In this document: one piece after another, positions 1,630 through 62,696 of the stretch
Numbering within the stretch: the stretch's first letter is position 1
How the letters are laid out: the number at the start of each line of letters is the position of its first letter
Virus record (IMG/VR): IMGVR_UViG_3300009605_006302
From: a virus
DNA length: 64,000 nucleotides
Direction: 5' to 3' (one strand)
Position numbers and translations under genes: made by a program
Notes under the pieces: model-generated
What the model was told of the DNA's origin: nothing
Databases searched by the model: none
What the model saw: the letters and a program-made list of their open reading frames with translations, nothing else

Positions 1630-4293
1630 TTATTTTTCACCATATTGAGAATCGTCGACACATACTGTGCCGATGGGGCAATCATCGTCCGTTGTTTCAC
1701 TAAAATCCCCGGGGACACTCTTTTTGGATTTTTGTAGTGCAAAAGCTCCTGGATCAAAAAAAGCAGACGGCGCCGAGGTTCCAGCAATTGCGCCGGCAGC
1801 ATATTTAGTCATAAACCTATCATAATCATATGCATATTTAAACTTCACGTTCACATCAAACTTTCTTCCTGTGTTTTTAGATATAAACCTAAATTTAAAA
1901 TTTTTATCCCATACACTGCCTTCTTCAGTCAACCCTAAAACAATTTCATCTCTGCCTATTTTCGTAGCACTTTTTAAATTCCTGCCGGCATCTGTTTTAT
2001 CCATATCAATAATACGATGTGGAAAAGAAGGAATAATGTAAATGTTTTTATTTATAGTTTTTGTTGGAACTTTGTGACTCGGTTCTTTCAGTTCGGGTGT
2101 ATCCACTAATAAATAGACTGCTCCATCTTCTTCTACCATCTCCACTTCAAAAACTGGTGAAGGATAAGACAAATGACCATGTACGTCTGTCGTTCGAAAT
2201 GTATAATAATATTTTTTATTTGACTCAATGTCATCAACGTAAGATACTGCTGATAAATTAGTGCCATTAAATTCTGTAGGAATTTGTTTAATTATGTTAC
2301 CAGAAAAGTCTCTATAAGATTTGGGCATCTTTTCTAGTCGATATATTTCAAAAAGTCGCGGAGGATCATCTGAAGCATAGTTGATTGGATCGCCGCGTGA
2401 AACTTTTTGAATTTTTTCCATTTCACTTATCAGTGCCTCTTCTCCAGGTTCGATTACTTGTGGAACTAATTTATAATCACCCACATTTGCGTTTAAATTA
2501 AAAAGTATTCGATCACTCATTCCTCGATATGGAATAATATTAACATCGGGTGCCACCGGGGGCCTATCAAGAATTTTGTTGACGCCACTTTCAAAATAAG
2601 GAACTTTGACAAGTTTTAAATATGGTTCCAAAAAAACTTTGAATCGAGGTAGGTCATATATTATGGCCGGGTCGTCATACTTTCCTCTAAGAGTGTCGTC
2701 GAAAACATGTCCTGGTTCTTCTTTCTCATATCTATATTTTGTTCCAAAAACTAATCGATATGCATAAATCTTGTATCTATACTCAGTATTGTATTTAACC
2801 TGTGTGTCAATAAAATTACATATTCCCAATTCATCAGAATTTGGAATGAAAAAACTTTGAATTGGTTCTACAGATCCTCTTGTAAACTTATCTATTTGAT
2901 AAAAAACCGATTCCGAATAAGTGGTTTTGCCTTCTTCAAAAATTTCTTTGAGGTTTCTATTGTTTTGCCTTATTAACGTGCGTATTCGACCCAACAAAAC
3001 AATTTTTAACAAATTTGCTATTTGAGGCCGGCATTCATCTAAAATTTTGGTTTCATTGCACTTGTTTCTACCAAATACCACTGTATTCTTTAAACTTGAT
3101 TCCTCGGCTATCCCGCGCCACCATTCAGTTATATCCCACGTTTTATATGATTGGTTAGGGAGTATCTTTGAACCTAATAACCTTGTTCCACTTTTTCCTT
3201 TTTTTTCCGTTAAAAACTCACGTTGTTCAACAAATTTAATCTCGCCCCTTCCACTAGAAGCTTGTACGTGGTTAATAAGATTGGCACTTAGTTCCGCTTC
3301 TCTTAACATTCCAGCAGCCTGAGTGCCGGCGCCTGTAGAAAACTTTATATCCATGTGCATCGGAAATAGTTCTTTTTTAGCGCTAAACTTAGTTAAAAAA
3401 TCAACATCAACTTGAGAAAAAATAAAATTTCTGAATTTCTCATTAAGTTTTGCCATTTTTTGTGGGTCATTCTTTAGTTTGTCATAGCCACTCTGCCATG
3501 ATTTAAAATAATCGGCTATTTGAGTACTTCTTTCACCAACTTTTTCACCTTTTTCATTAAGTATATCTTTGTAAACACCAATAATATTACCCATAAGAGA
3601 TATATGCTTATTGTACCATGAATTATTTTCATCTAGATATCCACTTTCCTTTTCTGACAAAAAAGAATACAAACAGGGCAATAATTTTTCTTCCACGTTG
3701 TCTATCTTATTTTCATACCCATTGACATAAAAATTATATTCTGAATCAACATCGGCTACTAAAGTTAGAATATTACTAATTGCAAGATCTAGTGTTTCTT
3801 TGTATAAATACGGTACGCTGTATTCAAAAGGACAATCCTGCCAACTCTTCGAAGGGTTGGCAAGTTCAAGCTCATTATCAACGAACTCAAACCATTTTTC
3901 TAAATCGAACACCATGTCTGAGGTGTGCGCTTCTGCTCCTGTGTACCCAGGCGGGATACTTAATAAAAATCTGTGATTTTCTTTCGGTATTAGTTTTATA
4001 TATTGCGATATAACTGGAAACAAATCTCCCCCTTCTTCAATCGGTGGATCTCCATACTCAATTGAAAATGGTGAGTCTCCGGGAATATTATATCCAAAAA
4101 CGATATTATCATTATGAGATGTCCATAATTTTCCAGTATACCACCTTATTGGATCTATTTGATCCGGCGGGGGCCCCATGACCTCGCTGAAGCGGTGGGG
4201 GAGCATGAGTGTTGGCTCTCCACTGCTTTCGTCGAGCGTTGTGGTGGCGTGTAATCCAAAATCTACAGCTGTTCTTTTTTTCCCTATACTCAT
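1630..4293 (-). CDS. Large hypothetical protein, probably virion structural; FN3-like beta segments
   Basis: 887 aa ORF in the structural operon. Segments such as NTEYRYKIYAY and KKYYYTFRTTDVHGHLSYPSP are typical FN3-type strand ends. Confidence 0.5.
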   Translation of the reverse strand: MSIGKKRTAVDFGLHATTTLDESSGEPTLMLPHRFSEVMGPPPDQIDPIRWYTGKLWTSHNDNIVFGYNIPGDSPFSIEYGDPPIEEGGDLFPVISQYIKLIPKENHRFLLSIPPGYTGAEAHTSDMVFDLEKWFEFVDNELELANPSKSWQDCPFEYSVPYLYKETLDLAISNILTLVADVDSEYNFYVNGYENKIDNVEEKLLPCLYSFLSEKESGYLDENNSWYNKHISLMGNIIGVYKDILNEKGEKVGERSTQIADYFKSWQSGYDKLKNDPQKMAKLNEKFRNFIFSQVDVDFLTKFSAKKELFPMHMDIKFSTGAGTQAAGMLREAELSANLINHVQASSGRGEIKFVEQREFLTEKKGKSGTRLLGSKILPNQSYKTWDITEWWRGIAEESSLKNTVVFGRNKCNETKILDECRPQIANLLKIVLLGRIRTLIRQNNRNLKEIFEEGKTTYSESVFYQIDKFTRGSVEPIQSFFIPNSDELGICNFIDTQVKYNTEYRYKIYAYRLVFGTKYRYEKEEPGHVFDDTLRGKYDDPAIIYDLPRFKVFLEPYLKLVKVPYFESGVNKILDRPPVAPDVNIIPYRGMSDRILFNLNANVGDYKLVPQVIEPGEEALISEMEKIQKVSRGDPINYASDDPPRLFEIYRLEKMPKSYRDFSGNIIKQIPTEFNGTNLSAVSYVDDIESNKKYYYTFRTTDVHGHLSYPSPVFEVEMVEEDGAVYLLVDTPELKEPSHKVPTKTINKNIYIIPSFPHRIIDMDKTDAGRNLKSATKIGRDEIVLGLTEEGSVWDKNFKFRFISKNTGRKFDVNVKFKYAYDYDRFMTKYAAGAIAGTSAPSAFFDPGAFALQKSKKSVPGDFSETTDDDCPIGTVCVDDSQYGEK

Positions 4294-8434: not shown

Positions 8435-11400
8435 TTAGAATACCCTCGACTAAAAGTATCAATAGCTCTGATTATGGCTTTTTTACCACCGGATTGAGCA
8501 AATTTTTCAGATGACAGTGTAACAGAAGTTGTCGTCCCTGGCCGGGCCAATATTACTTCTGTTGTCTGTGGTTGTAGCGGTGAAATCTGCAATGGAGTAG
8601 CACTTCCGATTGATACATCTGTTTCCATCTTAACCAATTCAACCAATGAAAAGAAATCATATGGCCAATTATAACTATAAATAGAATCATGATCTCTCGA
8701 TCCTTCAGTGTTACCATATCTAGAAAACGATTGACGTTTTTCGTGCCAAACAGATTTTCTAATTTTGTTAAAATAATTCTTTTCCGCTCTTTGTTTCACT
8801 TTAAATACCTTCCAACGAAGTTCATCAGGAACTTCATCTTCAAATTTAAAAAATTCTTTTTCTAACATTTGATGTTGAATCGAAACGGTGTTCGCCTTAA
8901 AAGATGTGCCAATGTCTGGTGGTAGATTCTGCCACATATCAGTTAAATCTTTTCTCGTTAGCTTGTGTTCAAATTCAAAAATATACATAACGAAAGGATC
9001 AATTCCTGATTTTCCACCATATCTTGCTTCTCCCGATCGCGAAGTTGTGTCAAAAGTTAAAAAGTCCATCTCCGGAGGAAATATATATTTTGTCATAGCA
9101 TCGACCATGTTTACAATTGTATCTCCAACTTCTATATCCGATTCATAATCCACAGACATCTTTAATTTCAGTTTAGCGGCTGCAAATTGTTCTTTTGAAA
9201 TTTTAAAAAACTTACGTTCTCCATTCTTTTCAATATACGGCACCGCCACTACCGCCTCTCGAACTGTAAAAGATTCGCCGGCGGTGCCAAGTCGAATTGG
9301 GGTTTTCGCAAATCCAACCAAATCTGCCAAAGATCCAGTCAGTGTTACATTAGTTAATTCATTCTTGTCGAGATCCTGCACTTCTAAATATATTCCTTGT
9401 TGAGCCGTTGGTTCGGAGCCATATTGATGCCACATTCCCCGAGATACAGAGCCAGAACCAGATGCCGGCAAAGTAACACTAACATTTGAAAAATCCAATA
9501 TCGGTGTTTCCCACTTAGGCTGGATTGACCAAATGTTTGGTGTATTTTCATCTTGCAGAACCTCTTTTGGCCTTCCCGTCAGTGCATCAAAAACTGTACT
9601 ATCAAGCTGTGTCACTACATCAAAATTAATTGACGCGGATATGTGCATTCTTGATCCACTAGCAGGAGATGGAGAGGTAACAAACTGTGTTCCAATTCTA
9701 TAATAGGAAGCAGATAATTGAGAAACGATCTCATTTAAATAATAGCGCCTGGTATCAGTTGGCTTAAAAGTTAACTCAACTTCTGAATATCCATCATAAT
9801 AAGGTGGAGTAAATGGTTCGTAGCTTTCTTGACGATGTATACCGTATGCATGTGTTGGTGGACCAAAAGCAGACGGTCTGTCATACATAGTCATAGTCGG
9901 GTTTGTCAGTTGAGAACCAGAAGACCAATCAAAAAATACAGCCGGAAGAGAATCCAAAATTTGTTTCTTTCGCGATAACTTACCAGAACGAAGAACAACC
10001 CTCATTTTATATATTTTTGACGCGTCGGCATTAAAATGTTTTGGATCATTATCCGGATATGATACTAATGTAGTCACGTTGTTGTTATTCAGGTATAAAT
10101 TAATACTTTCTGCCAAGAAATTATTCATTGCCAAACGGTATAGCGAATCTCCGTTTCCATTCCATTTTGCGATTGAGTCCAGTGAAGCAGACCGATGTGG
10201 TTCCATATCTTGTAATGGAACAGTTAAATAATTCTCAGGTTCTATTAGTGCCTCAAACGGTATTCTGACGTCAAAACTTGAACTAATTCTAGCACTACTT
10301 GTAAGAGATCGCAAGTCTAAATCAGGTTTTAAAGAAGCAGCCGGTTGTGGAAAAAACGGCTTAGTTGAATCACAACTACCCAAACCTCCAGTTATATTAA
10401 ATGAACTGGTCATTTGAGGCCAATCGACTGCGATTCCAGATTTAATTGAATTATAGAGAACACCAGGCCCAAATAATGGCGCAATGAAAGTACGCCACGA
10501 AGGCTGTGTTCCAAAAGTATAAGGTATTGTACCACCAAACTCGTTCACATTATCAGCATAAGACTGCGAAAACATCGTTGCCAGCTGTAATGTTCTGTCG
10601 GCCGGATAAAAGCCGTCATACGGCAAAAACTTCATCAAAGCTTTACAACGAAGAGTTAGTGTCTTATCTTTCTCAAAAGGTTTGTGATCTTCTTCTATTA
10701 CATCAAAATACTTCAAGAAATCGGAATGACTATATGTTACACAAAAATCATCATTTGCACTTGACGTTATAGATGCTCCCTCTAAAGTCAAAAACCCCGA
10801 ATTGGCAGCCAAAAAGTTTTCACTCTTTTCGTTCACATAATAGTTCATGTGTTCACTTATACGAAATTCCGGAACAATCGAGTAATCCTTTCCAATTCCT
10901 CGCATATTTTCTTGATAATGGCCATATGAATCATAAAACGGTGATTTTCCAGACTGAGTGCCGGCTTCCCATAAAGTATCGCCGGCAAAATAACCAAGTT
11001 CTTGACCAGTTACAGAATTATATTCAGGCGTTCTTCTAGCATAAATGGGGCCGGCTGGGCAGGAAAGAAACCTCTTCATACAATTTGTGTTTGGTGTGTC
11101 ATTTGTGTCTAACAAAGTTTGATATCGAGCAAGAGGAGTTGAAAGGAGAGAACTGCTACCATACAAGTATCCCAAAGGATATCCTCTTCCTACGTTAGTA
11201 TAGGGTACTTCATTTATCCAAAGAACGCCGGAGCCGCGAGGGTTATTACGTGCTACTTCATTAATACAATAACCATTGGAACCAGCAATGATATCCACTT
11301 GATTGAATCTAAACCATGCATCCAAACCTTCAGGGCCGTGATGAAAAACCCCGCCCGAACCAGTGACAGATTCTAGAAAACTTGCTGTAGCATGATAATA

Positions 11401-53772: not shown

Positions 53773-54072
53773 TTACACTTTATGTTCTTTGTTACCTGTG
53801 TCATCAAGTTCGTGTTTCATCGCTTTTTCTCCCGCTGCAACATCAGCGAGTGCTTGATGGTATCCTCTAACCCAGTTTTCTTCGGCAACAACCATAAGAA
53901 ATTCCGGAAATTCTTTTGATATTGTATCAACAATCATTTCAACAGTAATTTTTCCATCTTCGGGGCTGTGTTCTTCGCCAACATAATCAACGAGCCAATT
54001 TTTAAGCTCGGTGTCGGGCACTACTTCTTCAGTTAAAGCTGGATTTTCTCCTAAATTCATCTTATTCTCCAT
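53773..54072 (-). CDS. Hypothetical protein
   Basis: 99 aa ORF packed between its neighbours. No recognisable motif. Confidence 0.7.
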   Translation of the reverse strand: MENKMNLGENPALTEEVVPDTELKNWLVDYVGEEHSPEDGKITVEMIVDTISKEFPEFLMVVAEENWVRGYHQALADVAAGEKAMKHELDDTGNKEHKV

Positions 54073-54074
54073 GT

Positions 54075-55412
54075 TTATAGTAATTTAGCTGCAAGAGACG
54101 CAACTTTTGAGCGTTCGCCTTTCTGCAAAGTTATGTGGCCGGCCAAAGCCTCATTTTTGAACTTTTCTACTGCATAAGTGAGACCGTTGGTGGTTTCATT
54201 GATATAAGTATTGTCGATTTGTTCAATATCGCCAGTCAAAATAATCTTTGTGTTTTCACCCACTCTTGTTATTATAGTCTTTAATTCGTGAGTTGTTAAA
54301 TTTTGTGCTTCATCAATCATAATAAAAGCGTTCGATATAGAGCGGCCTCTAATGTAGGTTATTGCCTCCATCTCTATTATACCATCTTTCATGTAACTTT
54401 CCAAGGTTAATTTGTCATTTCCCATTAAATATTGCAAATTATCTTGAATTGGCAGCAGCCATGGCATCATTTTGTCTTCCATTGATCCAGGCAAAAAACC
54501 GATGTCTCTCCCAACGGGCTGTATTGGCCGAGATATGACCATTTTCTTATATAGAGGCTCTTGTAGTCCTCCTTTCCTTCCACGCTGTTCTAGGGTCTGT
54601 GAGAGGCCCGCAGCGATGGCACAGAGGGTCTTACCGCTGCCGGCGCGGCCGACGAGGGTGATAATCTTAATTTCCGGATCCATCAGCAGATCAAAAGCAA
54701 ATGTTTGTTCTTTATTTCGTGGCTTTATTCCCCAAATCCCTGATTTAAACTCGGGAACCTTATAGAGAGGGCTTTCATAACTCTCAAATCTCGCGAGGGC
54801 AGATTTTTTCTCGTTAGAGTTCGAAACTAACATAACATACTCATGAGCATGCAACACAATCTCATCTTTATCTAGAAATATTTCTTCTTTTTCATAAAAT
54901 CTATCAATGATCTCTTCATCGATCAAGTGAGTCGAAAATCCGGTAAATATTTCAGTTCTGTCTTTTACAACTTGTTCTGTTCTATAATCTTCACACAACA
55001 AACCAAGTGCATCACATTTAACTCTCATATTAATGTCACGAGAGACAACAATGATCTTCTTATTGGGGTTATTTTGCTTTTCCGTTAAAGCTGTGATAAT
55101 AATTTGAGTATCTGAATTTTCTATATCCAATCCAGGTGGACATAATAGAGGATCGTAACCTCTTACGAATAACAGGCCTTTTCCTTTTTCGATTCGAACA
55201 CCCTTCTGAAGACTGCCCTTTATACGCAAGTTATCAAGGATACGAATCGCACCTCTGGCGTGGGCACCAACAGTGTCCTGTCGTTTCTTGTTATTGTCGA
55301 TTTCCTCTAAAACTTTTAAAGGAACAAGAATATCGTTTCTACCAAAAGAGAAAATCGAACTGCGATCTGTTAAGATAGCGCTAGTGTCTAGCAAATAGGT
55401 CTTTTTCTTCAT
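54075..55412 (-). CDS. phoH: PIN-PhoH (PhoH2-type) protein
   Basis: N-terminal PIN domain (LLDTSAIL, VLEEID, D..I, VSRDINMRVK). C-terminal PhoH ATPase (GRAGSGKT, RGRSI, IDEAQN, GDIEQID). The start is 55412 (ATG) or 55421 (GTG). Confidence 0.92.
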   Translation of the reverse strand: MKKKTYLLDTSAILTDRSSIFSFGRNDILVPLKVLEEIDNNKKRQDTVGAHARGAIRILDNLRIKGSLQKGVRIEKGKGLLFVRGYDPLLCPPGLDIENSDTQIIITALTEKQNNPNKKIIVVSRDINMRVKCDALGLLCEDYRTEQVVKDRTEIFTGFSTHLIDEEIIDRFYEKEEIFLDKDEIVLHAHEYVMLVSNSNEKKSALARFESYESPLYKVPEFKSGIWGIKPRNKEQTFAFDLLMDPEIKIITLVGRAGSGKTLCAIAAGLSQTLEQRGRKGGLQEPLYKKMVISRPIQPVGRDIGFLPGSMEDKMMPWLLPIQDNLQYLMGNDKLTLESYMKDGIIEMEAITYIRGRSISNAFIMIDEAQNLTTHELKTIITRVGENTKIILTGDIEQIDNTYINETTNGLTYAVEKFKNEALAGHITLQKGERSKVASLAAKLL

Positions 55413-55423
55413 TGTGCCCACTA

Positions 55424-55431
55424 TAAATAGT
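55424..55431 (-). promoter_or_regulatory. Putative late promoter motif ACTATTTA
   Basis: TAAATAGT on the + strand in the short gap directly upstream of phoH. Confidence 0.5.
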
Positions 55432-55438
55432 TTTTATA

Positions 55439-55726
55439 CTAATATCGCTTATTAATATTCAAAAGAAAAAATATAAACCCAAAGAAAAAATATAAAGGCC
55501 ACAATAAACCACAACCCAAAGAAAAAACAAAAACTTTGCTGTCGGTGCTTAAAAATTTTTCAAAAGTAAATATTTTATAACAAGCTCTGTATACTATTAA
55601 AGCCATAATTGTGTATGCTGCAGCAGTCAAGACAGGTGGAAAAAACAACAAAATATAAAAATACCCTAGCATAAACAAACAAAACAGAGAATATGCAAGA
55701 CCTATATTTTTTTTCGTGATTATCAT
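55439..55726 (-). CDS. Small membrane protein (about 3 TM helices)
   Basis: 95 aa, almost entirely hydrophobic, with basic ends. Confidence 0.6.
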   Translation of the reverse strand: MIITKKNIGLAYSLFCLFMLGYFYILLFFPPVLTAAAYTIMALIVYRACYKIFTFEKFLSTDSKVFVFSLGCGLLWPLYFFFGFIFFLLNINKRY

Positions 55727-56442
55727 AGCGCCCTTAACATATTTGCTCTTTGTTGTCTGTGATTGCTTTCGGGTCGTTGTGCTACGTAAAGATCCAACGT
55801 TTTTTCTGGATCTTCTCTCAAAATACGTCTAAATCCACTAACACCGGTAGAATTAGCAATTGCAAGTGCCCAAGATAACCTTTCTGATGGCCAACCAGCA
55901 TCTCTGGCATAGTATGCTGCAGCTAATACTCTGTCTCTCCACTCCAGCAATTGATAACCTGCTCCATAAGGGTATATATGTAGCGTTAGATCGACTAAGT
56001 TGACCCATTGACGGGTGTAGTATGGACAAGAGCCGGCGGCTTGTATGACGCTGCTAGCGTCCCATGGGGACCACTCTAAAATACCCTCCGGAGGTTGAAA
56101 ATGGAAGAGTCCATGAGCGCCACAATCTGTCCGGACAATATCATAGGGTCTTTTGCCAATTCGATCGGGCGCAGCTATAATTTGTATAGCTTCAAGCTCA
56201 AATCTTCTGAGGCGTGTGACTCGCGAGTCGAAATCGTGAGAATTTCCCATAAATTCAATATATTGTTCTAAATCCATATAACAAAATTCGAATTCAGCTG
56301 GACAATAATCATAATTTATGGGCAAACACGAAGGATAACTCATCAAATATTCGAATTCGTGTATTTCAGTGTTAGTAATTGAAGCGAGAGAAATATTGGA
56401 GCTGCACAAAACAATTAAAGCAATTAAATTAAATAATTTCAT
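55723..56442 (-). CDS. Secreted lysozyme-like / lytic-transglycosylase-like protein
   Basis: Signal peptide MKLFNLIALIVLCSSNISLA. GAHGLFHFQP resembles the SLT GAxGLxQ motif, and AAAYY...ALAIANS.G resembles ALAAYNAG. Confidence 0.45.
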   Translation of the reverse strand: MKLFNLIALIVLCSSNISLASITNTEIHEFEYLMSYPSCLPINYDYCPAEFEFCYMDLEQYIEFMGNSHDFDSRVTRLRRFELEAIQIIAAPDRIGKRPYDIVRTDCGAHGLFHFQPPEGILEWSPWDASSVIQAAGSCPYYTRQWVNLVDLTLHIYPYGAGYQLLEWRDRVLAAAYYARDAGWPSERLSWALAIANSTGVSGFRRILREDPEKTLDLYVAQRPESNHRQQRANMLRAL

Positions 56443-57031
56443 CTACCAGGCCATATTCTAGACATTGTTCAGCATTAAACCATAAATCGTGCTTAAGAAT
56501 TTCTTCTAGCTTCTTTTTAGGTATTTTTGTATATTTCGTATAAATATCTTTGATCATTTTCATAAATCGATCACAATTTTTCATATCATCTTTGATTTCT
56601 TCGTATTTTCCCCAAATTCCACTTGAAAGCTGGTGAATTAGCATGTAAGAATGTGCTGTGATATATCTTTCTTCCGCAACAACGCTCATGAGTGTCGCTG
56701 CAGAAGCAGCACAGCCCTCAACTATGCTATGTACCGGTGTTACTGATTTTCGTATGTAATCAATTGTCGAAAAAGCAGCAAAAACACTGCCTCCAAAGCT
56801 TTGTATGTGAAGATGTATATTTGGAACAGCTGCATCAAGTGTGTTCGATCGATTTATGAGTTCTTTGTCTAGCTTTCGAAGTGATTTGTTTAAAGTTAGG
56901 ATTTTTGTTCTTTTTACTTCGGAATAAAAATAGATTCTGTTTTGTTCTATTATTATGGTGTCATCATCAGTAGATGAAGAATCTTCTTCATTTGATTGTG
57001 ACGCAGCCCAAAATAAATCGACTTTTTTCAT
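56429..57031 (-). CDS. clpP: ClpP-family protease subunit
   Basis: LHIQSFGGSV, CAASAATL (Ser), MLIHQ (His), HDLWF (Asp) and EYGLVDEI. Confidence 0.92.
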   Translation of the reverse strand: MKKVDLFWAASQSNEEDSSSTDDDTIIIEQNRIYFYSEVKRTKILTLNKSLRKLDKELINRSNTLDAAVPNIHLHIQSFGGSVFAAFSTIDYIRKSVTPVHSIVEGCAASAATLMSVVAEERYITAHSYMLIHQLSSGIWGKYEEIKDDMKNCDRFMKMIKDIYTKYTKIPKKKLEEILKHDLWFNAEQCLEYGLVDEII

Positions 57032-57267
57032 TATTTTCTCTTCTTATTCTTCTTCTTTTCCACTAAATCTGATCTGAGGCGTTTTTTTACACGAAAATTG
57101 CTTTCACATCGTTTAATCTTGTAATCGTAATCGTTTTTTATCTCTTTTTCTTCTTCTACCTTCGCAACGGCCTCATTATAAGTAGAAAGGTGAGCAATTA
57201 CTGTCCAAGGTCGGCCCGTTTTGACGGTTTTTTCATTTTTTATGTTAAATTTTTCACTTTTTTTCAT
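57031..57267 (-). CDS. Small basic hypothetical protein
   Basis: 78 aa, Lys/Arg-rich, with a strong AGGAGG SD and a 1-nt overlap with clpP. Confidence 0.7.
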   Translation of the reverse strand: MKKSEKFNIKNEKTVKTGRPWTVIAHLSTYNEAVAKVEEEKEIKNDYDYKIKRCESNFRVKKRLRSDLVEKKKNKKRK

Positions 57268-57396
57268 TTCTTGTCCTCCTTCTTATATACCTAAGTTTTA
57301 ATTCTTTGTATATCATACAAATTGAAACTATCAAAAAACATATGTACATCACAACAATAGACGATATCAAAGCCATAAATAACCAATGTTTTTCCA

Positions 57397-58548
57397 TTAT
57401 CTGATTTTTAAAAACCTTTTAAGCTCTTCTAGACGTTTTTCGGGTGCAGCGAGGCCGCCAATCATCGTATAAGCCGTCAATTTCTCTCTTTTGGAGTCTT
57501 CGTAGATGCCACGATGAATAATTGCTCCATCTGTCAAAGATCCGAGCGTGTCAAAGCCATATTCGATGTAATCCATCAATCCAGCGACCTCTTCATACAT
57601 CGTAGTACCTCCAACAACGATTGAAGCAGCTGCTGTGGCTGTTTTTAGGTCAAATCCTCCGGCTAAAAGCGTTTTTTCGAGGTTTGCCTTCAATGCGTTG
57701 GCAATAGAGGTCTCGTGATCGACCTCCCTGACTGTTGTAACACCCATGATCATGCACCCCTGGCTCTTCATGACCGAGTCATAGTCCATAGGGTCAAAGG
57801 ACGTATAGTCGCTATTTTGGGCACATAGGACGTTAAATACGTGAAACAGGCCGGCAACTGTGTTGTTTAGTGTCGGCCAGAACTTCTTGACGGTCAAAGA
57901 TGGGTATAATTTCTTGATCTTGTCATTATCAACCATAATAAGCGGTGCAAAATCACCATTTGCAGCCCGAACACACAGTTCTGATACCTTATTGAAGGCA
58001 TTTTTGGCCACAATAGACGATGCACACTCACCATTTGTCGGCAAAGACACAATAACACCCACTCTTTCGCTGGCATCTTCTCTTCCGACGTATGTAAAGT
58101 AGCGTTTTGCAATATCAACTAGTGCATTTACGCTTCCGCCGCCTGTACCGCCGGCCGCGCCGACACAAACAAGGATTCGATCGATGTTTTCACCGAAAAT
58201 TTCCCTTAATTTGTTAAAAATCTCTTGACTTCTGCCTTCAAAAGCCTCTCTGCCTCTTTCCTGATTCTTGCCGGCGCCTTGTCCACTAAAATAGTCCACA
58301 AAAAACTTGTGTTCTTCTGGAAGTTCCAATAAATTAAGGTCAGATTGCGCTGTGTTGAACGCAATAGTCTTCTTATAGCCGAGATCATAGAAAGCTTTGG
58401 CAATTCTACCTCCTCCTTGGCCAGATCCAATGACAGCATAAGTCAAAGCACCTCCGGATTCGTCTTCGACACCGTTTTTTTGAGTTTGTTCCTCTAAATT
58501 TGGGTCAAGATCTTCAATATCTAATGTTGGAATGTCTAATTCAATCAT
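57397..58548 (-). CDS. Tubulin/FtsZ-superfamily GTPase (TubZ/PhuZ-like)
   Basis: The true start is the ATG at 58548 (SD GAGGAG); the track's extension runs through the tmRNA. Motifs GSGQGGGRIA, FNTA, GQGAGKN, GAAGGTGGG (signature loop) and SFDPMDY (T7-loop DxxD). 383 aa. Confidence 0.9.
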   Translation of the reverse strand: MIELDIPTLDIEDLDPNLEEQTQKNGVEDESGGALTYAVIGSGQGGGRIAKAFYDLGYKKTIAFNTAQSDLNLLELPEEHKFFVDYFSGQGAGKNQERGREAFEGRSQEIFNKLREIFGENIDRILVCVGAAGGTGGGSVNALVDIAKRYFTYVGREDASERVGVIVSLPTNGECASSIVAKNAFNKVSELCVRAANGDFAPLIMVDNDKIKKLYPSLTVKKFWPTLNNTVAGLFHVFNVLCAQNSDYTSFDPMDYDSVMKSQGCMIMGVTTVREVDHETSIANALKANLEKTLLAGGFDLKTATAAASIVVGGTTMYEEVAGLMDYIEYGFDTLGSLTDGAIIHRGIYEDSKREKLTAYTMIGGLAAPEKRLEELKRFLKIR

Positions 58549-58569
58549 AATTATAATTTTCTCCTCTAG

Positions 58570-58915
58570 AGGAGGTGGCGAGAATCGAACTCGCGTCCTA
58601 AATGCTTCAGTTAATTTTTCGTTCACAAGGTTAGTTAGATTTTAGCCTCTAACAAGCGTTTTATGAAAAAAAGAGACCCAACCACTCTTTCAAAACCACC
58701 TACTACCTGTAGGGTAACTTCATTTTTGATCTTGACTTTGGTTTACAGGGTGTCAAGCTCAAAAAAACCCTGTTCTTACACTCTAGGCTGCTAGTGCGTA
58801 AGAATTGTCGTAAATACCATCATTGGCAATTATCATTTGAGCGTTTTTAATGTGCCGCGCTCCCCACATCCTTGCAAAATTAACTTCTTTCACTCAGTCG
58901 AACCCTTTCACCCCC
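58570..58915 (-). ncRNA. ssrA: tmRNA (transfer-messenger RNA), tag ANDGIYDNSYALAA
   Basis: The 5' GGGGGUG pairs with the 3' CACCUCC, giving the G3.U70 pair. The 5' end continues AAAGGGUUCGAC and the T-arm is CGCGAGUUCGAUUCUCGC. Helix 2 pairs GUUAAUUUU with AAAAUUAAC and CAAGG with CCUUG. Pseudoknot 1 is AUGUG/CACAU plus GAGCG/CGCUC. The tag ORF at 58827-58783 ends YALAA*. Confidence 0.96.
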
Positions 58916-58923
58916 TAATAATA

Positions 58924-58931
58924 TAAATAGT
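58924..58931 (-). promoter_or_regulatory. Putative late promoter motif ACTATTTA
   Basis: TAAATAGT on the + strand, ending 8 nt upstream of the first nucleotide of the tmRNA. Confidence 0.55.
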
Positions 58932-58951
58932 TTGTTAAAATAGAATCCGAA

Positions 58952-59126
58952 AACAACTTCATGAGGGGTCGATCTCTCGCTCCACGACCATACTAGCCTA
59001 CCTTCACGCCTCGTTGTAGACATTGAGGAGAAACTCATTGTATAATGCGGTCGGTTCCGCGCATCCTCATGAAGCCGTTGGTCAAAGCTACGAAAAACCG
59101 TTGTTTAACAACATTTGACCGCCTCC
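58952..59126 (-). ncRNA. Candidate novel structured RNA (five-way junction plus 5' branched hairpin)
   Basis: A 15-bp closing stem (59079-59065 with 58966-58952) encloses four hairpins. A further stem pairs 59120-59114 with 59086-59080. Mismatches on the + strand become G.U pairs on the - strand. Confidence 0.65.
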
Positions 59127-59165
59127 TTTATTAAAAAAATGATCCATGATATACATAATACTAGT

Positions 59166-59193
59166 ATTATAACACATTTGACCAAAAAGTCAA
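59166..59193 (-). promoter_or_regulatory. Near-consensus sigma70 promoter with extended -10
   Basis: The minus strand reads TTGACT-16 nt-TATAAT, with TG immediately upstream (TGTTATAAT). It points into the structured RNA and tmRNA. Confidence 0.75.
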
Positions 59194-59564
59194 GGAATAA
59201 TTTCACTTTCATCAAAATAATAATTTATCTTATATCGTCTGCTAAATTTATTCATATCTTGTATACTAATACCCAGAAATCGAGCGGCTTCGCCCTTTGT
59301 TTTGGTTGCCGTGGAAGTAAATTTTAATATTGCATCTCTTACAAGATCTGGAATTGCCAGCCATATCGGCAATCCATAAAGATAACCGCCCGCAGCCCGA
59401 TTTGCAAGTTCTAGTTTAAGCCCAATAACTTCTTCAAGGGTAAGTTTATTCAACATTACCTCAAATTCTTCTGTTGATTTGCCTTTTTTGCGAAGTTGTG
59501 TTATTATGCTGTGATTTTTGGTAGATTTTTTTCTTCTACCGGTGAGTTTTCGTTCCCAGGCCAT
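59190..59564 (-). CDS. Fis-type helix-turn-helix protein
   Basis: The C-terminal VRDAILKF...TKGEAARFLGIS..MNKFSRRY matches the Fis/NtrC HTH pattern (n..kAArlLGisr). Confidence 0.7.
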   Translation of the reverse strand: MAWERKLTGRRKKSTKNHSIITQLRKKGKSTEEFEVMLNKLTLEEVIGLKLELANRAAGGYLYGLPIWLAIPDLVRDAILKFTSTATKTKGEAARFLGISIQDMNKFSRRYKINYYFDESEIIP

Positions 59565-59565
59565 A

Positions 59566-60369
59566 TTAAAGCTCTAGTTCTAGTTCCTCTTCGCCTTCTG
59601 GAGCGCCGAATTCCTCGGGACTCTCTGCAGTTGCCTCATCATATTCTGGCGTAGTGGGCTCTTCTAAGCCCATCTTCATTTCATCATCAAATTTATCAAA
59701 ATAAAGTTTAATATTGGTGATCAAATAATCGTAAAATAACTCTCGATCTTCACTATTGGCAAGAAGCTCATATGAATCCAAAATATTCTTTTCAATTTTC
59801 TTGAAAGTGGATGCAGCCATGTTTCTTCCGGTTTCATCTTCGCCTTCAATCGAAAAATCGTCCTCTTCATCTTCTGGTTTTGGGTCTGGGTCAATATCAA
59901 TAAATGCTTCATCGCCCAAATCTGGGCCTTCGTCATCACCAATAGTGATATCAATATCTTCATCTTCTTCTTCCAGTGAGCGCAATTCTGCTTCTTTAAT
60001 ACTACCTCTCAGATTTGCTACAGCTCTTGATGGAGCAAGTGCGTTCTTAATCCCTTTTACAACATGGGCCCGAAAGGATTGTTTTTGTTCTTCTGCTGTT
60101 GTAAGAATTTTATAATCAGTTTCAATAACTGGAATTATTTTCTTCAACAAATCTTCCAATACGTTAATACCGGTGTTTTCATGAGGCGTTTCATCTGAAA
60201 TTTCGGCAGCTTCAGTTATAATAAGCTTTCGAATAATACTTCGAAGCTCCTTTTCCTCATTAAGCTGTTGTTTTTCCTCTCTTTTACGTTTTTCTAAAAC
60301 GATGTTAATAATTTTTCGTATAGATTCTCGCAAAACGAGTTCTTCAGCAAATTCTTGACGATCGATCAT
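59566..60369 (-). CDS. Acidic helical protein, possibly prohead core or internal
   Basis: 267 aa. Repeated L/I-x-E helices at the N-terminus (LRESIRKII, QLNEEKELRSIIRKLIITE), followed by very acidic linkers. Confidence 0.55.
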   Translation of the reverse strand: MIDRQEFAEELVLRESIRKIINIVLEKRKREEKQQLNEEKELRSIIRKLIITEAAEISDETPHENTGINVLEDLLKKIIPVIETDYKILTTAEEQKQSFRAHVVKGIKNALAPSRAVANLRGSIKEAELRSLEEEDEDIDITIGDDEGPDLGDEAFIDIDPDPKPEDEEDDFSIEGEDETGRNMAASTFKKIEKNILDSYELLANSEDRELFYDYLITNIKLYFDKFDDEMKMGLEEPTTPEYDEATAESPEEFGAPEGEEELELEL

Positions 60370-62696
60370 TGTTGTGTCTCCATTATACTACTTCTCACTA
60401 AATAGTTTAATACTTCGCGAATAAGTGTATCTTGTTTCTTTTTCTTTTTCCTAGGACCTGGGCCGACTGAACCTTCAACTGCGCCGGCAGCCATGGCTGA
60501 AACTTCATCCAAGTCACCCTCTTCTTCCATAGAATAGGCAATTGCTGCAGCCTGTTCTTTACTTTTTCCCTCGTCATCGATCAAGTGAGCAATTTTTTTT
60601 GATACCCTCTTTTGACCGGTTTTAGAAACCTTAGTTTTCTTTCTTTCTTCATCGAGAATCTCTTCAACCAAAGAATATAGTAGGGAAATAGTTTTTTTTT
60701 CTTCTTGGATAGGCTTAATACTAAATATGCTTTTGATCCATTCTGGATCAACTTCTGGTGGAATATAAGAACTTATATCTTTTCCCAATAAAGCTTCACG
60801 AAAATCAGTGGCACTAATAGCACCTTCGCTGGTCTGAAAACAGCCGGCGACGTGATCTGAGATTATGACACCTTCTCTTGCATATTTTTGAAAGGTACCC
60901 GGGTTTCCAAAACGCTCAAAATCAGGTTTACCTTTCTTGTCTGGTTTATTGCTGCAGCCTAAAATAATCTCATCTCCAGGTTGTGCAAAATCTAATTCAT
61001 CATTTTTATTCTCAATGAATTCAACTACTTGACCTATAGGTGAATTAGATTCAGATGGTTTATCATAAATAATAACATTGTTCAAAGCCGATGAATCAAT
61101 GTAAATATTCCAAATCTTTCTAGAGTCGTCAAAAGTAACTTCAGCTTCGTTGTCTCTTCCTACTCCTCTAGGAAGTGGAGAAATAAGAACATATACGTAT
61201 CCATCTGAACCGACCAAATCACTGTAGTGGCGAACCATTTCAAAGTGGCCGATATGAGGAGGCTTAAATGCTCCAGGGACGAGTACTATTACTCTTCCTT
61301 CACCGAAACGTGGTTCGACAATCGGCTCGTCTTCTAGAGCTTCTTCCAAGCCTTCTTTTTTTGGTGTTCGATCATATTTACCCAAACCCAACATTTGATT
61401 GACAGGAGCAAATTGGCCAGTGAACTTATAAGTTTCACCCTCATAATCAAATACGAGACCTTCAATGACTGTCGTTATTTTTTCTAATGCTGACTGTACT
61501 GCTTCATCACTCAACACATCGCCTACGTCTTCGCCGCCGTGAATCTTGGCCAATGAAGTTTTTAGAAGTGTCAAGCTGCCTTCATCAGCCAATACTTTTG
61601 AATCTTTTGCTTTCTCGCCAACCTTTGTGCGAAGCCTTGATAGAGAATCTTCAGCCTGTAGAGTATAACCACTTATAAAGCCTTCCAAAACCCTTGTCGC
61701 AAATCGATGATTGACCATTATTAATGGATTCATAGCGCGATCTTTGATATCTTTCATGGCTGAACGAGTTCTCAAAAATTCATTAATAAAGTCTTTGGCC
61801 TCTTCGCCGGGAATTGACTCCAAAACACTTTTTATCTCTATTGTCTTTCTTGGCATGCCGGTAGTTGCAAAATGCATAAGCGCCAGCATCAGTCGATCAT
61901 ATGTTTCTTCAGAATATCCAGAACCAAGTTTTTCTTGAAGAAGGAACTTCAATCTGTTTTCCAAATATTCTCCAACGGTTTTTGCAGAACCTTGGATAGT
62001 TCGCAGTTCATTTACTGCGTTATGATAAGCTTCTTTCTTTTCAATAAATTCTGTAAAATCAACAATAGCATTAACTTTCGTTGTTGGGACATCGGGGGAA
62101 TCGATTTGCAGTTCCTGTAATCGAGCTTCTAATGCTGCCGACCTTTCTTCAGCTAATTTCTTTGCTCCTCGATAATCAGCTTGATCTTCACTTAGTGAAA
62201 TCAGTTTGCCATCAACCAACTTTTTGTGACCAACTCGATGAATCAGCAACACTTGTGTATCATAGGGAATAACATTTTCACTCTCAGGATCCATTACTTC
62301 TGCATTATAGAAAAGTCTCTCTCCGGATGGAGTATAGAAAAACTCTGGCGATAGCAAATGAGCAATCTTCTCAAAATTAATCATCGCTGCATAAAATGCA
62401 TTGACCACATTAATTGGAGTTGGATTCTTGCCGGCGGCAATACGATCAGTTGTAAAGTAACTCTTCAGTGTTTCTTTATCGAGACCACCCTCATTTGCGT
62501 GGGCGTTGTTTCGAATTGCCAAAGCTTGTCCGGTTCGATGATCATAGCTTATAGAGATATTCTGACCGTCGGTTTTTTCCGTTATTTTAATATTCGGAAA
62601 CCCTTTTGATGCAATCTGGAATATATCCCTCATTTGATCAAAACCTAGATCAAGATTCTCATAGGGATGTAGCATGTGGCCACCAACAGCGCCCAT
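60366..62696 (-). CDS. Fusion of an ATP-dependent ligase-like nucleotidyltransferase and a HIGH-family nucleotidyltransferase
   Basis: TEKTDGQN (motif I KxDG), FYNAEV (III), IEGLVF (IV) and YKFTG (V), then VPGAFKPPHIGH (HxGH) and SATDFR. Confidence 0.7.
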   Translation of the reverse strand: MGAVGGHMLHPYENLDLGFDQMRDIFQIASKGFPNIKITEKTDGQNISISYDHRTGQALAIRNNAHANEGGLDKETLKSYFTTDRIAAGKNPTPINVVNAFYAAMINFEKIAHLLSPEFFYTPSGERLFYNAEVMDPESENVIPYDTQVLLIHRVGHKKLVDGKLISLSEDQADYRGAKKLAEERSAALEARLQELQIDSPDVPTTKVNAIVDFTEFIEKKEAYHNAVNELRTIQGSAKTVGEYLENRLKFLLQEKLGSGYSEETYDRLMLALMHFATTGMPRKTIEIKSVLESIPGEEAKDFINEFLRTRSAMKDIKDRAMNPLIMVNHRFATRVLEGFISGYTLQAEDSLSRLRTKVGEKAKDSKVLADEGSLTLLKTSLAKIHGGEDVGDVLSDEAVQSALEKITTVIEGLVFDYEGETYKFTGQFAPVNQMLGLGKYDRTPKKEGLEEALEDEPIVEPRFGEGRVIVLVPGAFKPPHIGHFEMVRHYSDLVGSDGYVYVLISPLPRGVGRDNEAEVTFDDSRKIWNIYIDSSALNNVIIYDKPSESNSPIGQVVEFIENKNDELDFAQPGDEIILGCSNKPDKKGKPDFERFGNPGTFQKYAREGVIISDHVAGCFQTSEGAISATDFREALLGKDISSYIPPEVDPEWIKSIFSIKPIQEEKKTISLLYSLVEEILDEERKKTKVSKTGQKRVSKKIAHLIDDEGKSKEQAAAIAYSMEEEGDLDEVSAMAAGAVEGSVGPGPRKKKKKQDTLIREVLNYLVRSSIMETQQ
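60399..60406 (-). promoter_or_regulatory. Putative late promoter motif ACTATTTA
   Basis: TAAATAGT on the + strand, 30 nt upstream of the 60369 start. Confidence 0.45.

Follow-up and report, generated by a model that had tools for sequence, protein, structure and literature searches.

Genes for transfer-messenger RNA (tmRNA, or ssrA) are known in phages, although to our knowledge no role has been demonstrated for them there. Complete ssrA genes occur in Methylophilales phage Melnitz and in pelagimyophages, which are marine T4-like phages, and the RNA has been proposed to serve the upkeep of hijacked translation or the tagging of host proteins for amino-acid recycling; the paper makes no mention of Clp or of proteases (Buchholz et al. 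2022, PMC9004378). Complete tmRNAs also lie inside the tRNA clusters of Bxz1-like mycobacteriophages and of Bacillus phage G (Hudson et al. 2014, PMC4131195; PMC12484599). Here we describe a 64,000-nucleotide stretch of DNA (the window) from IMG/VR virus record IMGVR_UViG_3300009605_006302, in which a one-piece tmRNA (58567-58915, minus strand) precedes a gene for a serine protease of the ClpP fold (56429-57031, minus strand). A literature search, incomplete in its coverage, found no description of tmRNA-ClpP adjacency in marine T4-like phages.

An earlier interpretation made from the letters alone (the sequence-only reading) held that the phage supplies both the tagging RNA and the protease core. 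Both genes are present, but a dedicated cassette is only partly supported, as the protease is divergent and mostly occurs without a tmRNA. We consider it probable, with some reservation, that the locus is the head of a translation-support (tRNA) island of a marine T4-like phage, with tmRNA and protease loosely linked rather than forming an obligate pair. The two genes would then be neighbours because both sit in the same variable island. Across the clade it is the protease that stays constant, whereas a tmRNA is optional.

Relatives were picked through their ClpP-like protein, such that tmRNA-bearing kin without ClpP could not appear. We fetched 85 loci, mapped their RNA genes and homologs of the window genes, and counted 79 distinct loci; the set leaves out ClpP relatives of 74-95% identity that were found in the protein search. 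A tmRNA is present in the fetched flank of 16 of the 79 distinct loci, and in 15 of these it precedes the ClpP-like gene, co-oriented with it, at a distance of 0.33-5.6 kb. Ten of the 46 loci having at least 6 kb of upstream flank carry one. An Rfam scan of 50 whole records found a tmRNA in 15, ten of them already seen in the flanks at less than 6 kb. The additional examples comprise one on the opposite strand 3.4 kb away (L088), three on the same strand 10-14 kb upstream, and one, in a 246-kb phage, that is unlinked. The ClpP-like gene is kept without a tmRNA in about three-quarters of the relatives, and near-complete genomes such as G006 (90%) and G040 (89%) have none. The synteny of ssrA, tubulin and clpP suggested by the sequence-only reading is therefore upheld for the position and strand of the tmRNA (15/16), but not for co-occurrence (10/46 loci, 15/50 records) or for the tubulin, which few relatives possess.

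On a ClpP tree rooted with a paralog, the tmRNA-bearing loci are scattered, basal branches included, and the well-supported branches force at least eight changes. The simplest reading of this scatter is an old arrangement followed by many losses. The order that recurs among the 85 loci consists of a gene for a 124-amino-acid protein, a promoter, a set of tmRNA, tRNAs, tubulin and basic protein that varies between loci, tRNA-Arg(TCT), the ClpP-like gene and further tRNAs. The 168-kb genome G001 (locus L006; 92% complete) has its local gene order in common with the window: a large ligase-like protein, an acidic protein, the 124-aa protein, the tmRNA, the basic protein and the ClpP-like gene. Its island also holds tRNAs and a SpoU-type gene, and has no tubulin and no leader element.

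Transfer RNA genes are frequent companions of the protease gene in these relatives. A tRNA lies less than 1 kb from the ClpP-like gene in 34 of 68 loci, and in 17 of 74 a co-oriented tRNA-Arg(TCT) gene precedes it by no more than 300 nt. Probably the protease is transcribed with tRNAs in much of the clade. Examples of the tRNA-Arg(TCT) gene are L027:9897-9973, L050:9911-9988 and L063:9897-9973. The window itself has no tRNA gene; the tmRNA is the sole RNA gene called by ARAGORN in its 64 kb.

The tmRNA is real and, judged by its conserved parts, looks functional. Rfam model RF00023, whose gathering score is 47, gives it 109.3 bits (E 8e-42) and covers model positions 1-374 without truncation. 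ARAGORN places the gene at 58569-58915 (minus strand) and predicts the tag ANDGIYDNSYALAA followed by a stop. The tmRNA with a tag ending in YALAA that the sequence-only reading had noticed is thus confirmed. The acceptor stem GGGGGUG/CACCUCC, read from the sequence, includes the G3:U70 pair by which alanyl-tRNA synthetase recognises its substrates, and the T-arm is standard (GCGAG-UUCGAUU-CUCGC). The resume codon is GCC (Ala), with U-5/A-4 in front of it as in the E. coli tmRNA, and the tag frame runs for 14 codons to YALAA and then UAG. The first pseudoknot is intact. Among 17 phage tmRNAs of the clade, all tags end in ALAA, except one in RLAA, despite diverged sequences, suggesting that a ClpX-type degron is kept by selection.

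The 28 nt made up of the T-arm and the acceptor 3′ strand are identical in more than 120 bacterial genomes. This 28-mer is common to many Proteobacteria, Bacteriovoracaceae and others and was uninformative as to the host. We also considered whether the gene might be a prophage attachment remnant and rejected this, as the tmRNA is full length, phage genes lie on both sides of it, and no integrase is needed to account for it.

The 3′ tail of the window tmRNA departs from the usual form. Following the acceptor stem are the nucleotides U-CUA, not A-CCA. Of 80 bacterial copies with the identical 28-mer that were read, 77 continue with ACCA and all 80 have A73, and an A-CCA tail is present in 14 of 16 related phage tmRNAs. 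The GAGGAG ribosome-binding site of the tubulin gene begins 4 nt past the acceptor stem, and the arrival of this gene may therefore have replaced an earlier tail. In T4, host enzymes repair those tRNAs whose CCA is not encoded, and for this reason we regard the U-CUA tail as a caveat and not as proof of decay.

The protease comprises 200 amino acids of the MEROPS S14 type and matches Pfam CLP_protease at 6e-29. In alignments with ClpPs of known structure, Ser110, His133 and Asp182 fall on the catalytic residues, and all matches to Protein Data Bank sequences are ClpPs. This triad is invariant in the 22 family members that were aligned. The AlphaFold model has a predicted local distance difference test (pLDDT) score of 82.7, and Foldseek aligns it to ClpP structures with template modelling (TM) scores of 0.73-0.83. 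Membership in the canonical family is another matter: NCBIfam model TIGR00493 (clpP) scores 57.8 bits against a cut-off of 308.6, and the remaining ClpP models are far below their cut-offs too. The best NCBIfam match is NF045542, ClpP-related head maturation protease, with 105.6 bits against a cut-off of 120, and PHROG 94, which carries the same description, matches at 2e-38. The model leaves the acidic residues 1-21 disordered (pLDDT below 50) and shows no helix A ahead of strand 1. By sequence and model, then, the protein is a ClpP fold with its triad and not a canonical ClpP ortholog. A ClpP with a Ser-His-Asp triad had been proposed about 1.5 kb from the tmRNA and co-oriented with it; all of this stands except canonical ClpP identity.

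Differences extend to the positions that we take to form the E. coli ClpP pocket for the IGF loops of ClpX. Six of the eight counted differ in the phage protease (Y60H, Y62H, F82K, M92E, F112Y and L114T), and the remaining positions examined are I90I and L189I. A canonical-looking phage ClpP paralog likewise varies at some of these positions, and the changes are therefore compatible with docking. The family to which the protease belongs is large, with 2718 proteins at E <1e-10 in marine data and members on at least 559 IMG/VR viral contigs. The best identity to a ClpP-like protein of a cultured phage is no higher than 35%.

Additional ClpP paralogs are present in the clade. G001 has a second one (L013:1501-2130, minus strand), in which the position of the catalytic Asp is apparently Asn. 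A GroEL-like chaperonin gene (L013:2-220, minus strand) starts about 1.3 kb from this paralog, and a 419-aa open reading frame (ORF) separates the two. Seven loci (L065, L072, L074 and L076-L079) have two adjacent ClpP paralogs near position 9000-10600, one canonical-looking with the usual N-terminus and the other of the window type, an arrangement that recalls ClpP1/ClpP2. One of the seven belongs to the 246-kb phage G034.

The source is an uncultured T4-like phage from the marine environment, with a genome of about 150-180 kb. The IMG/VR record is a 75.8-kb virus fragment with a CheckV completeness of about 42%, of which the window is a part, and no close cultured relative of the window was found at the DNA level. 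The jumbo-phage setting assumed by the sequence-only reading does not hold, because the syntenic relatives are T4-like genomes of 147-168 kb that carry the prohead protease gene gp21, to which G001 adds a T4-type gp23 capsid gene. All six relatives that are 77-92% complete encode a prohead protease of the gp21 type (PF03420), at a large distance from the ClpP-like gene.

The window as a whole is enriched in the T4 late-promoter motif TATAAATA, with 6.3 sites expected and 16 present, a number that no shuffle reached. Most sites are on the plus strand, which fits T4-type late transcription of structural genes, and there is none on the minus strand of the island region. Examples are the sites at 3803, 8676, 13943, 17250 and 17262.

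Since its kin carry gp21 and its strand lacks the late motif, the protease falls outside the late head-building set, and a role as the prohead protease was rejected on the same grounds. Its gene neighbours are the tmRNA, the tubulin, a PIN-PhoH gene and, in kin, tRNAs, with no head module among them. Gene context and sequence thus identify the ClpP-like enzyme as a non-structural ClpP-fold protease.

Partners for the two components are largely absent from the phages. SmpB (PF01668) is missing from all 56 records searched, that is, this record and 55 relatives of which six are 77-92% complete, whereas control genomes matched. Nor does the rest of the 75.8-kb record, about 42% complete, contain a Clp ATPase. 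The absence of both proteins from the window, already pointed out from the letters, thus extends to the whole record, and for SmpB to the 55 relatives. ATPase domains of the ClpX/ClpA type occur in two of the 56 records, leaving 53 of the 55 relatives without one.

The first of the two is a ClpX encoded by G006, a T4-like genome that is 90% complete (L099:324-1577, equivalent to G006:C1:324-1577, minus strand). It scores 632 bits with TIGR00382 against a cut-off of 371, has the zinc finger and an MGF loop, and lies beside thymidine kinase. The G006 ClpP-like protein is the closest to that of the window in the locus set (61%). Because this ClpX is about 65% identical to bacterial ClpX of many phyla, it is regarded as an established phage gene and not host contamination; being equally near to many phyla, it was uninformative about the host. 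The second is a 711-aa ClpA/B-like ATPase of the 246-kb phage G034 (L100:2689-4824, plus strand), located 3.6 kb from the tmRNA of that phage (G034:C1:233474-233887). G034 also has an adjacent ClpP paralog pair, one member of which is canonical-looking. The parts of Clp-type proteolysis are dealt out separately within the clade.

Upstream of the tmRNA is a sigma-70-type promoter, TTGACT-16-TATAAT with an extended -10 TG (59166-59193, minus strand), which matches the consensus at 11 of 12 positions and bears out the earlier suggestion of a promoter here. Relatives have an equivalent promoter where the 124-aa gene ends (its 3′ end); from there to the tmRNA the distance is 13-24 nt in some and about 240-275 nt in others. 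No convincing terminator was found between the tmRNA and the ClpP-like gene. The 124-aa gene (59190-59564, minus strand) marks the 5′ edge of the island. Its product has homologs of 39-55% identity in 36 related loci, usually encoded immediately ahead of either the tmRNA or the first tRNA, and no match in Pfam, PHROG or NCBIfam.

Between promoter and tmRNA is a leader of about 245 nt, which contains a structured element (58952-59079, minus strand) defined by a conserved core and covariation. The core, GAAG(A/G)(G/U)AGG(C/A)UAGUAUG, is kept at the equivalent position in the elements of L044 (1095-1245), L046 (3810-3960), L047 (5520-5665) and L067 (412-585). An inner hairpin after the core shows three compensatory pairs. 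A script detected long outer helices, unrelated to one another in sequence, of 15 bp in the window, 9 bp in L046 and 11 bp in L067, and equivalents of 8-9 bp were read by eye in L044 and L047. The order of promoter, element and tmRNA is conserved, except that in L046 the element precedes a tubulin-like gene instead. These comparisons suggest that the element is probably a real, undescribed structured RNA. The structured RNA put forward by the sequence-only reading is thus supported by covariation in relatives, though not by folding energy, which is unremarkable (z = -1.06). A glutamine riboswitch or another Rfam family was considered and set aside, as neither the window nor the L044 element matches any family at E up to 10.

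The gene between tmRNA and protease that had been read as a tubulin proves to be one. It encodes a 383-aa GTPase of the TubZ/PhuZ-like tubulin family (57397-58548, minus strand), with both Pfam domains above their cut-offs: Tubulin (PF00091; 41.5 bits, cut-off 33, 2.3e-10) and TubZ-like_C (PF22453; 29.9 bits, cut-off 26, 6.6e-7). Its true start is the ATG at 58548, just past the tmRNA, and not the GTG at 58626, which overlaps the tmRNA. Homologs of 66-74% identity exist in L067, L088, L090 and L095 only, with remote ones in two more loci. A search of IMG/VR by peptide patterns found no relatives, whereas BLAST within the ClpP loci did. Downstream is a hydrophobic, presumably membrane, ORF of 47 codons that is known from the ORF list and is unique to the window (57254-57397, minus strand), having no homolog among the 85 related loci.

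The gene immediately before the protease encodes a basic protein of 78 amino acids (57031-57267, minus strand), which AlphaFold models as a small beta-alpha-beta-beta domain with a Lys-rich tail (pLDDT 80, and above 90 in the core). Proteins of this family, 65-130 aa long, are present in about 20 related loci and share a conserved PW followed by KIKR and VVK-R motifs. They belong to no Pfam or NCBIfam family, and fold searches returned only generic small folds (Foldseek E of 0.6 or more; VIA best Z 4.5). The basic gene directly adjoins or overlaps the start of the ClpP-like gene, both in the window and in about ten of the relatives, which makes its product the likelier functional partner of the protease. 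Proteins of this family may serve the protease as partner or adaptor, or may bind RNA.

The string of co-oriented minus-strand genes spans 53773-62696. The co-orientation of the cassette outlined at 56429-59193 is therefore correct, and its limits are not, as the string extends past both ends. The third gene downstream of the ClpP-like gene, within this string, is a fusion of a PIN domain and a PhoH-like ATPase (54075-55421, minus strand; PHROG 2765 at 5e-105).

The analysis shows the gene identities, the conserved position, the independent gain and loss and the absence of SmpB, whereas the biochemical course given next is our inference. The sigma-70-type promoter, probably early, would drive the leader, tmRNA, tubulin, membrane ORF, basic protein and protease. 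RNase P would cut the tmRNA from this transcript, and its cut at the tmRNA 5′ end would also set the leader free as an RNA in its own right. Once the 3′ end had been completed by the host CCA-adding enzyme and charged by the host alanyl-tRNA synthetase, the tmRNA would act, most likely, as a bacterial tmRNA does: host SmpB and EF-Tu would bring it to ribosomes stalled on broken mRNA, and the tag ending in ALAA would be added. Stalled ribosomes would be abundant during the destruction of host mRNA by a T4-like phage, or upon cleavage of RNA by host nucleases. Host ClpXP could read the degron of the tag without any phage protease. The probable working partner of the protease is the small basic protein whose gene immediately precedes its own, and a host or phage unfoldase may be needed as well. 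As nearly the whole clade keeps the protease with or without a tmRNA, this enzyme would have a role of its own, and cooperation between the two would be possible and not required.

Several observations weigh against so loose a linkage, or against a working tmRNA in this particular phage. The fixed order and strand (15/16, often at 0.33-0.8 kb) exceed what random placement would give, and their persistence across proteins that are only 50-60% identical could reflect selection for co-expression. The true ClpX of G006 implies that ATP-dependent Clp proteolysis is used somewhere in the clade. Also, with U73 and no encoded CCA, charging of the window tmRNA is not assured. A rival possibility is that the locus is after all a dedicated tag-and-degrade cassette, in which the tmRNA tags stalled products and the protease core removes them with host ClpX or ClpA or with a phage ClpX whose gene lies beyond the fragment, such that ribosomes and amino acids stay available when mRNA or tRNA is cut during infection. 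The tags that always end in a ClpX-type ALAA or LAA, the conserved order and strand, and the single promoter with no convincing terminator between tmRNA and ClpP-like gene all fit this arrangement. So do the ClpX of G006 and the ClpA/B-like ATPase 3.6 kb from the tmRNA of G034, and only about 42% of the genome is in hand. However, some three-quarters of the relatives keep the ClpP-like gene without a tmRNA, genomes that are 89-90% complete among them, the tmRNA has been lost or gained repeatedly on the ClpP tree, and 54 of 56 records have no Clp ATPase. The protease, moreover, is far below the ClpP equivalog cut-offs, its modelled N-terminus is disordered with no helix A, and its docking pocket departs from that of E. 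coli at six of the eight positions examined, with Lys and Glu among the replacements. We think a dedicated cassette unlikely. A more elaborate version, in which the leader sets the tmRNA supply, the basic protein is an adaptor or an SmpB-like helper, and the protease clears ALAA-ending products with phage or host ClpX, seems to us decidedly improbable. If such a private pathway did exist, it would let the phage ride out cleavage of mRNA and tRNA during infection.

Another possibility is that the genes are functionally unrelated, the protease being a repurposed relative of head proteases that, alone or with the basic protein, processes or degrades particular proteins of phage or host, and the window tmRNA being weakened or serving mainly as a sponge for host SmpB. 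The latter idea has a precedent in phage DS6A, whose tmRNA consists of the tRNA-like domain only and has been proposed to titrate SmpB (PMC4131195). Consistent with such a separation are the best NCBIfam and PHROG matches of the protease, which are ClpP-related head maturation proteases, its docking pocket and N-terminus unlike those of canonical ClpP, the basic gene that abuts or overlaps its start, and the U-CUA tail in place of the A73 seen in 80 of 80 bacteria and the A-CCA seen in 14 of 16 phage relatives. A decoy, however, would not need a full-length tmRNA with tag frame, resume context, first pseudoknot and G3:U70 pair. The NF045542 score is also below its cut-off, the gene has no capsid gene, portal gene or late promoter close to it, and the kin have their own gp21 protease. 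This explanation is in our view quite unlikely. Least convincing is that the adjacency is an accident of a variable region, with either gene perhaps decaying cargo. Island contents do vary greatly between relatives, and the tubulin and 47-aa ORF are sporadic. Yet the ClpP-like family is very large with an invariant triad (2718 proteins, at least 559 viral contigs), the tag end is conserved in 17 of 17 tmRNA copies, and deep branches of the tree repeatedly show the tmRNA placed after the 124-aa gene, leaving an accident very improbable. We therefore continue to favour a translation-support island in which the tmRNA and the protease are loosely linked.

The findings place a tmRNA at a fixed site near a conserved non-structural protease and its small putative partner protein in a very abundant marine clade (at least 559 viral contigs). 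This gives a concrete pairing for the question of why phages carry a ribosome-rescue RNA. New here are the probable leader RNA, conserved and hitherto undescribed, and the family of small basic proteins encoded just before the protease.

Comparison with described systems brings out both likenesses and differences. As in Melnitz, an early-type promoter and a structured RNA lie shortly before the ssrA gene, and no phage smpB has been reported there (PMC9004378). The Melnitz tmRNA, however, is a two-piece permuted form with a glutamine riboswitch before it and a transcription coactivator after it, whereas that of the window is in one piece, preceded by a leader that matches no Rfam family and followed by a protease. 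The combination of a complete phage tmRNA without SmpB is shared with the Bxz1-like phages and phage G. Phage G has ClpP, ClpX and a tmRNA and is the sole cultured phage with a homolog of the window tubulin (24% identity), but its ClpP is beside ClpX and, by ORF numbers, away from the tmRNA (PMC12484599), whereas in the window no ATPase is seen and protease and tmRNA are 1.5 kb apart.

The protease resembles bacterial ClpP (E. coli and T. thermophilus, 6hwm) in its fold, with a root-mean-square deviation of about 2.5 Å over about 174 residues, in its triad, and in an ungapped handle region, but is only 24-28% identical to these enzymes. With the ClpP-related head maturation proteases (NF045542, PHROG 94) it shares the best profile matches and the lack of the cellular ClpP N-terminus. 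It differs from them in being a stand-alone protein of 200 aa with no scaffold or capsid fusion, encoded in a tRNA island behind a sigma-70-type promoter. Three features are local to the window, namely the inserted tubulin gene, the U73/CUA tail of the tmRNA and its leader RNA.

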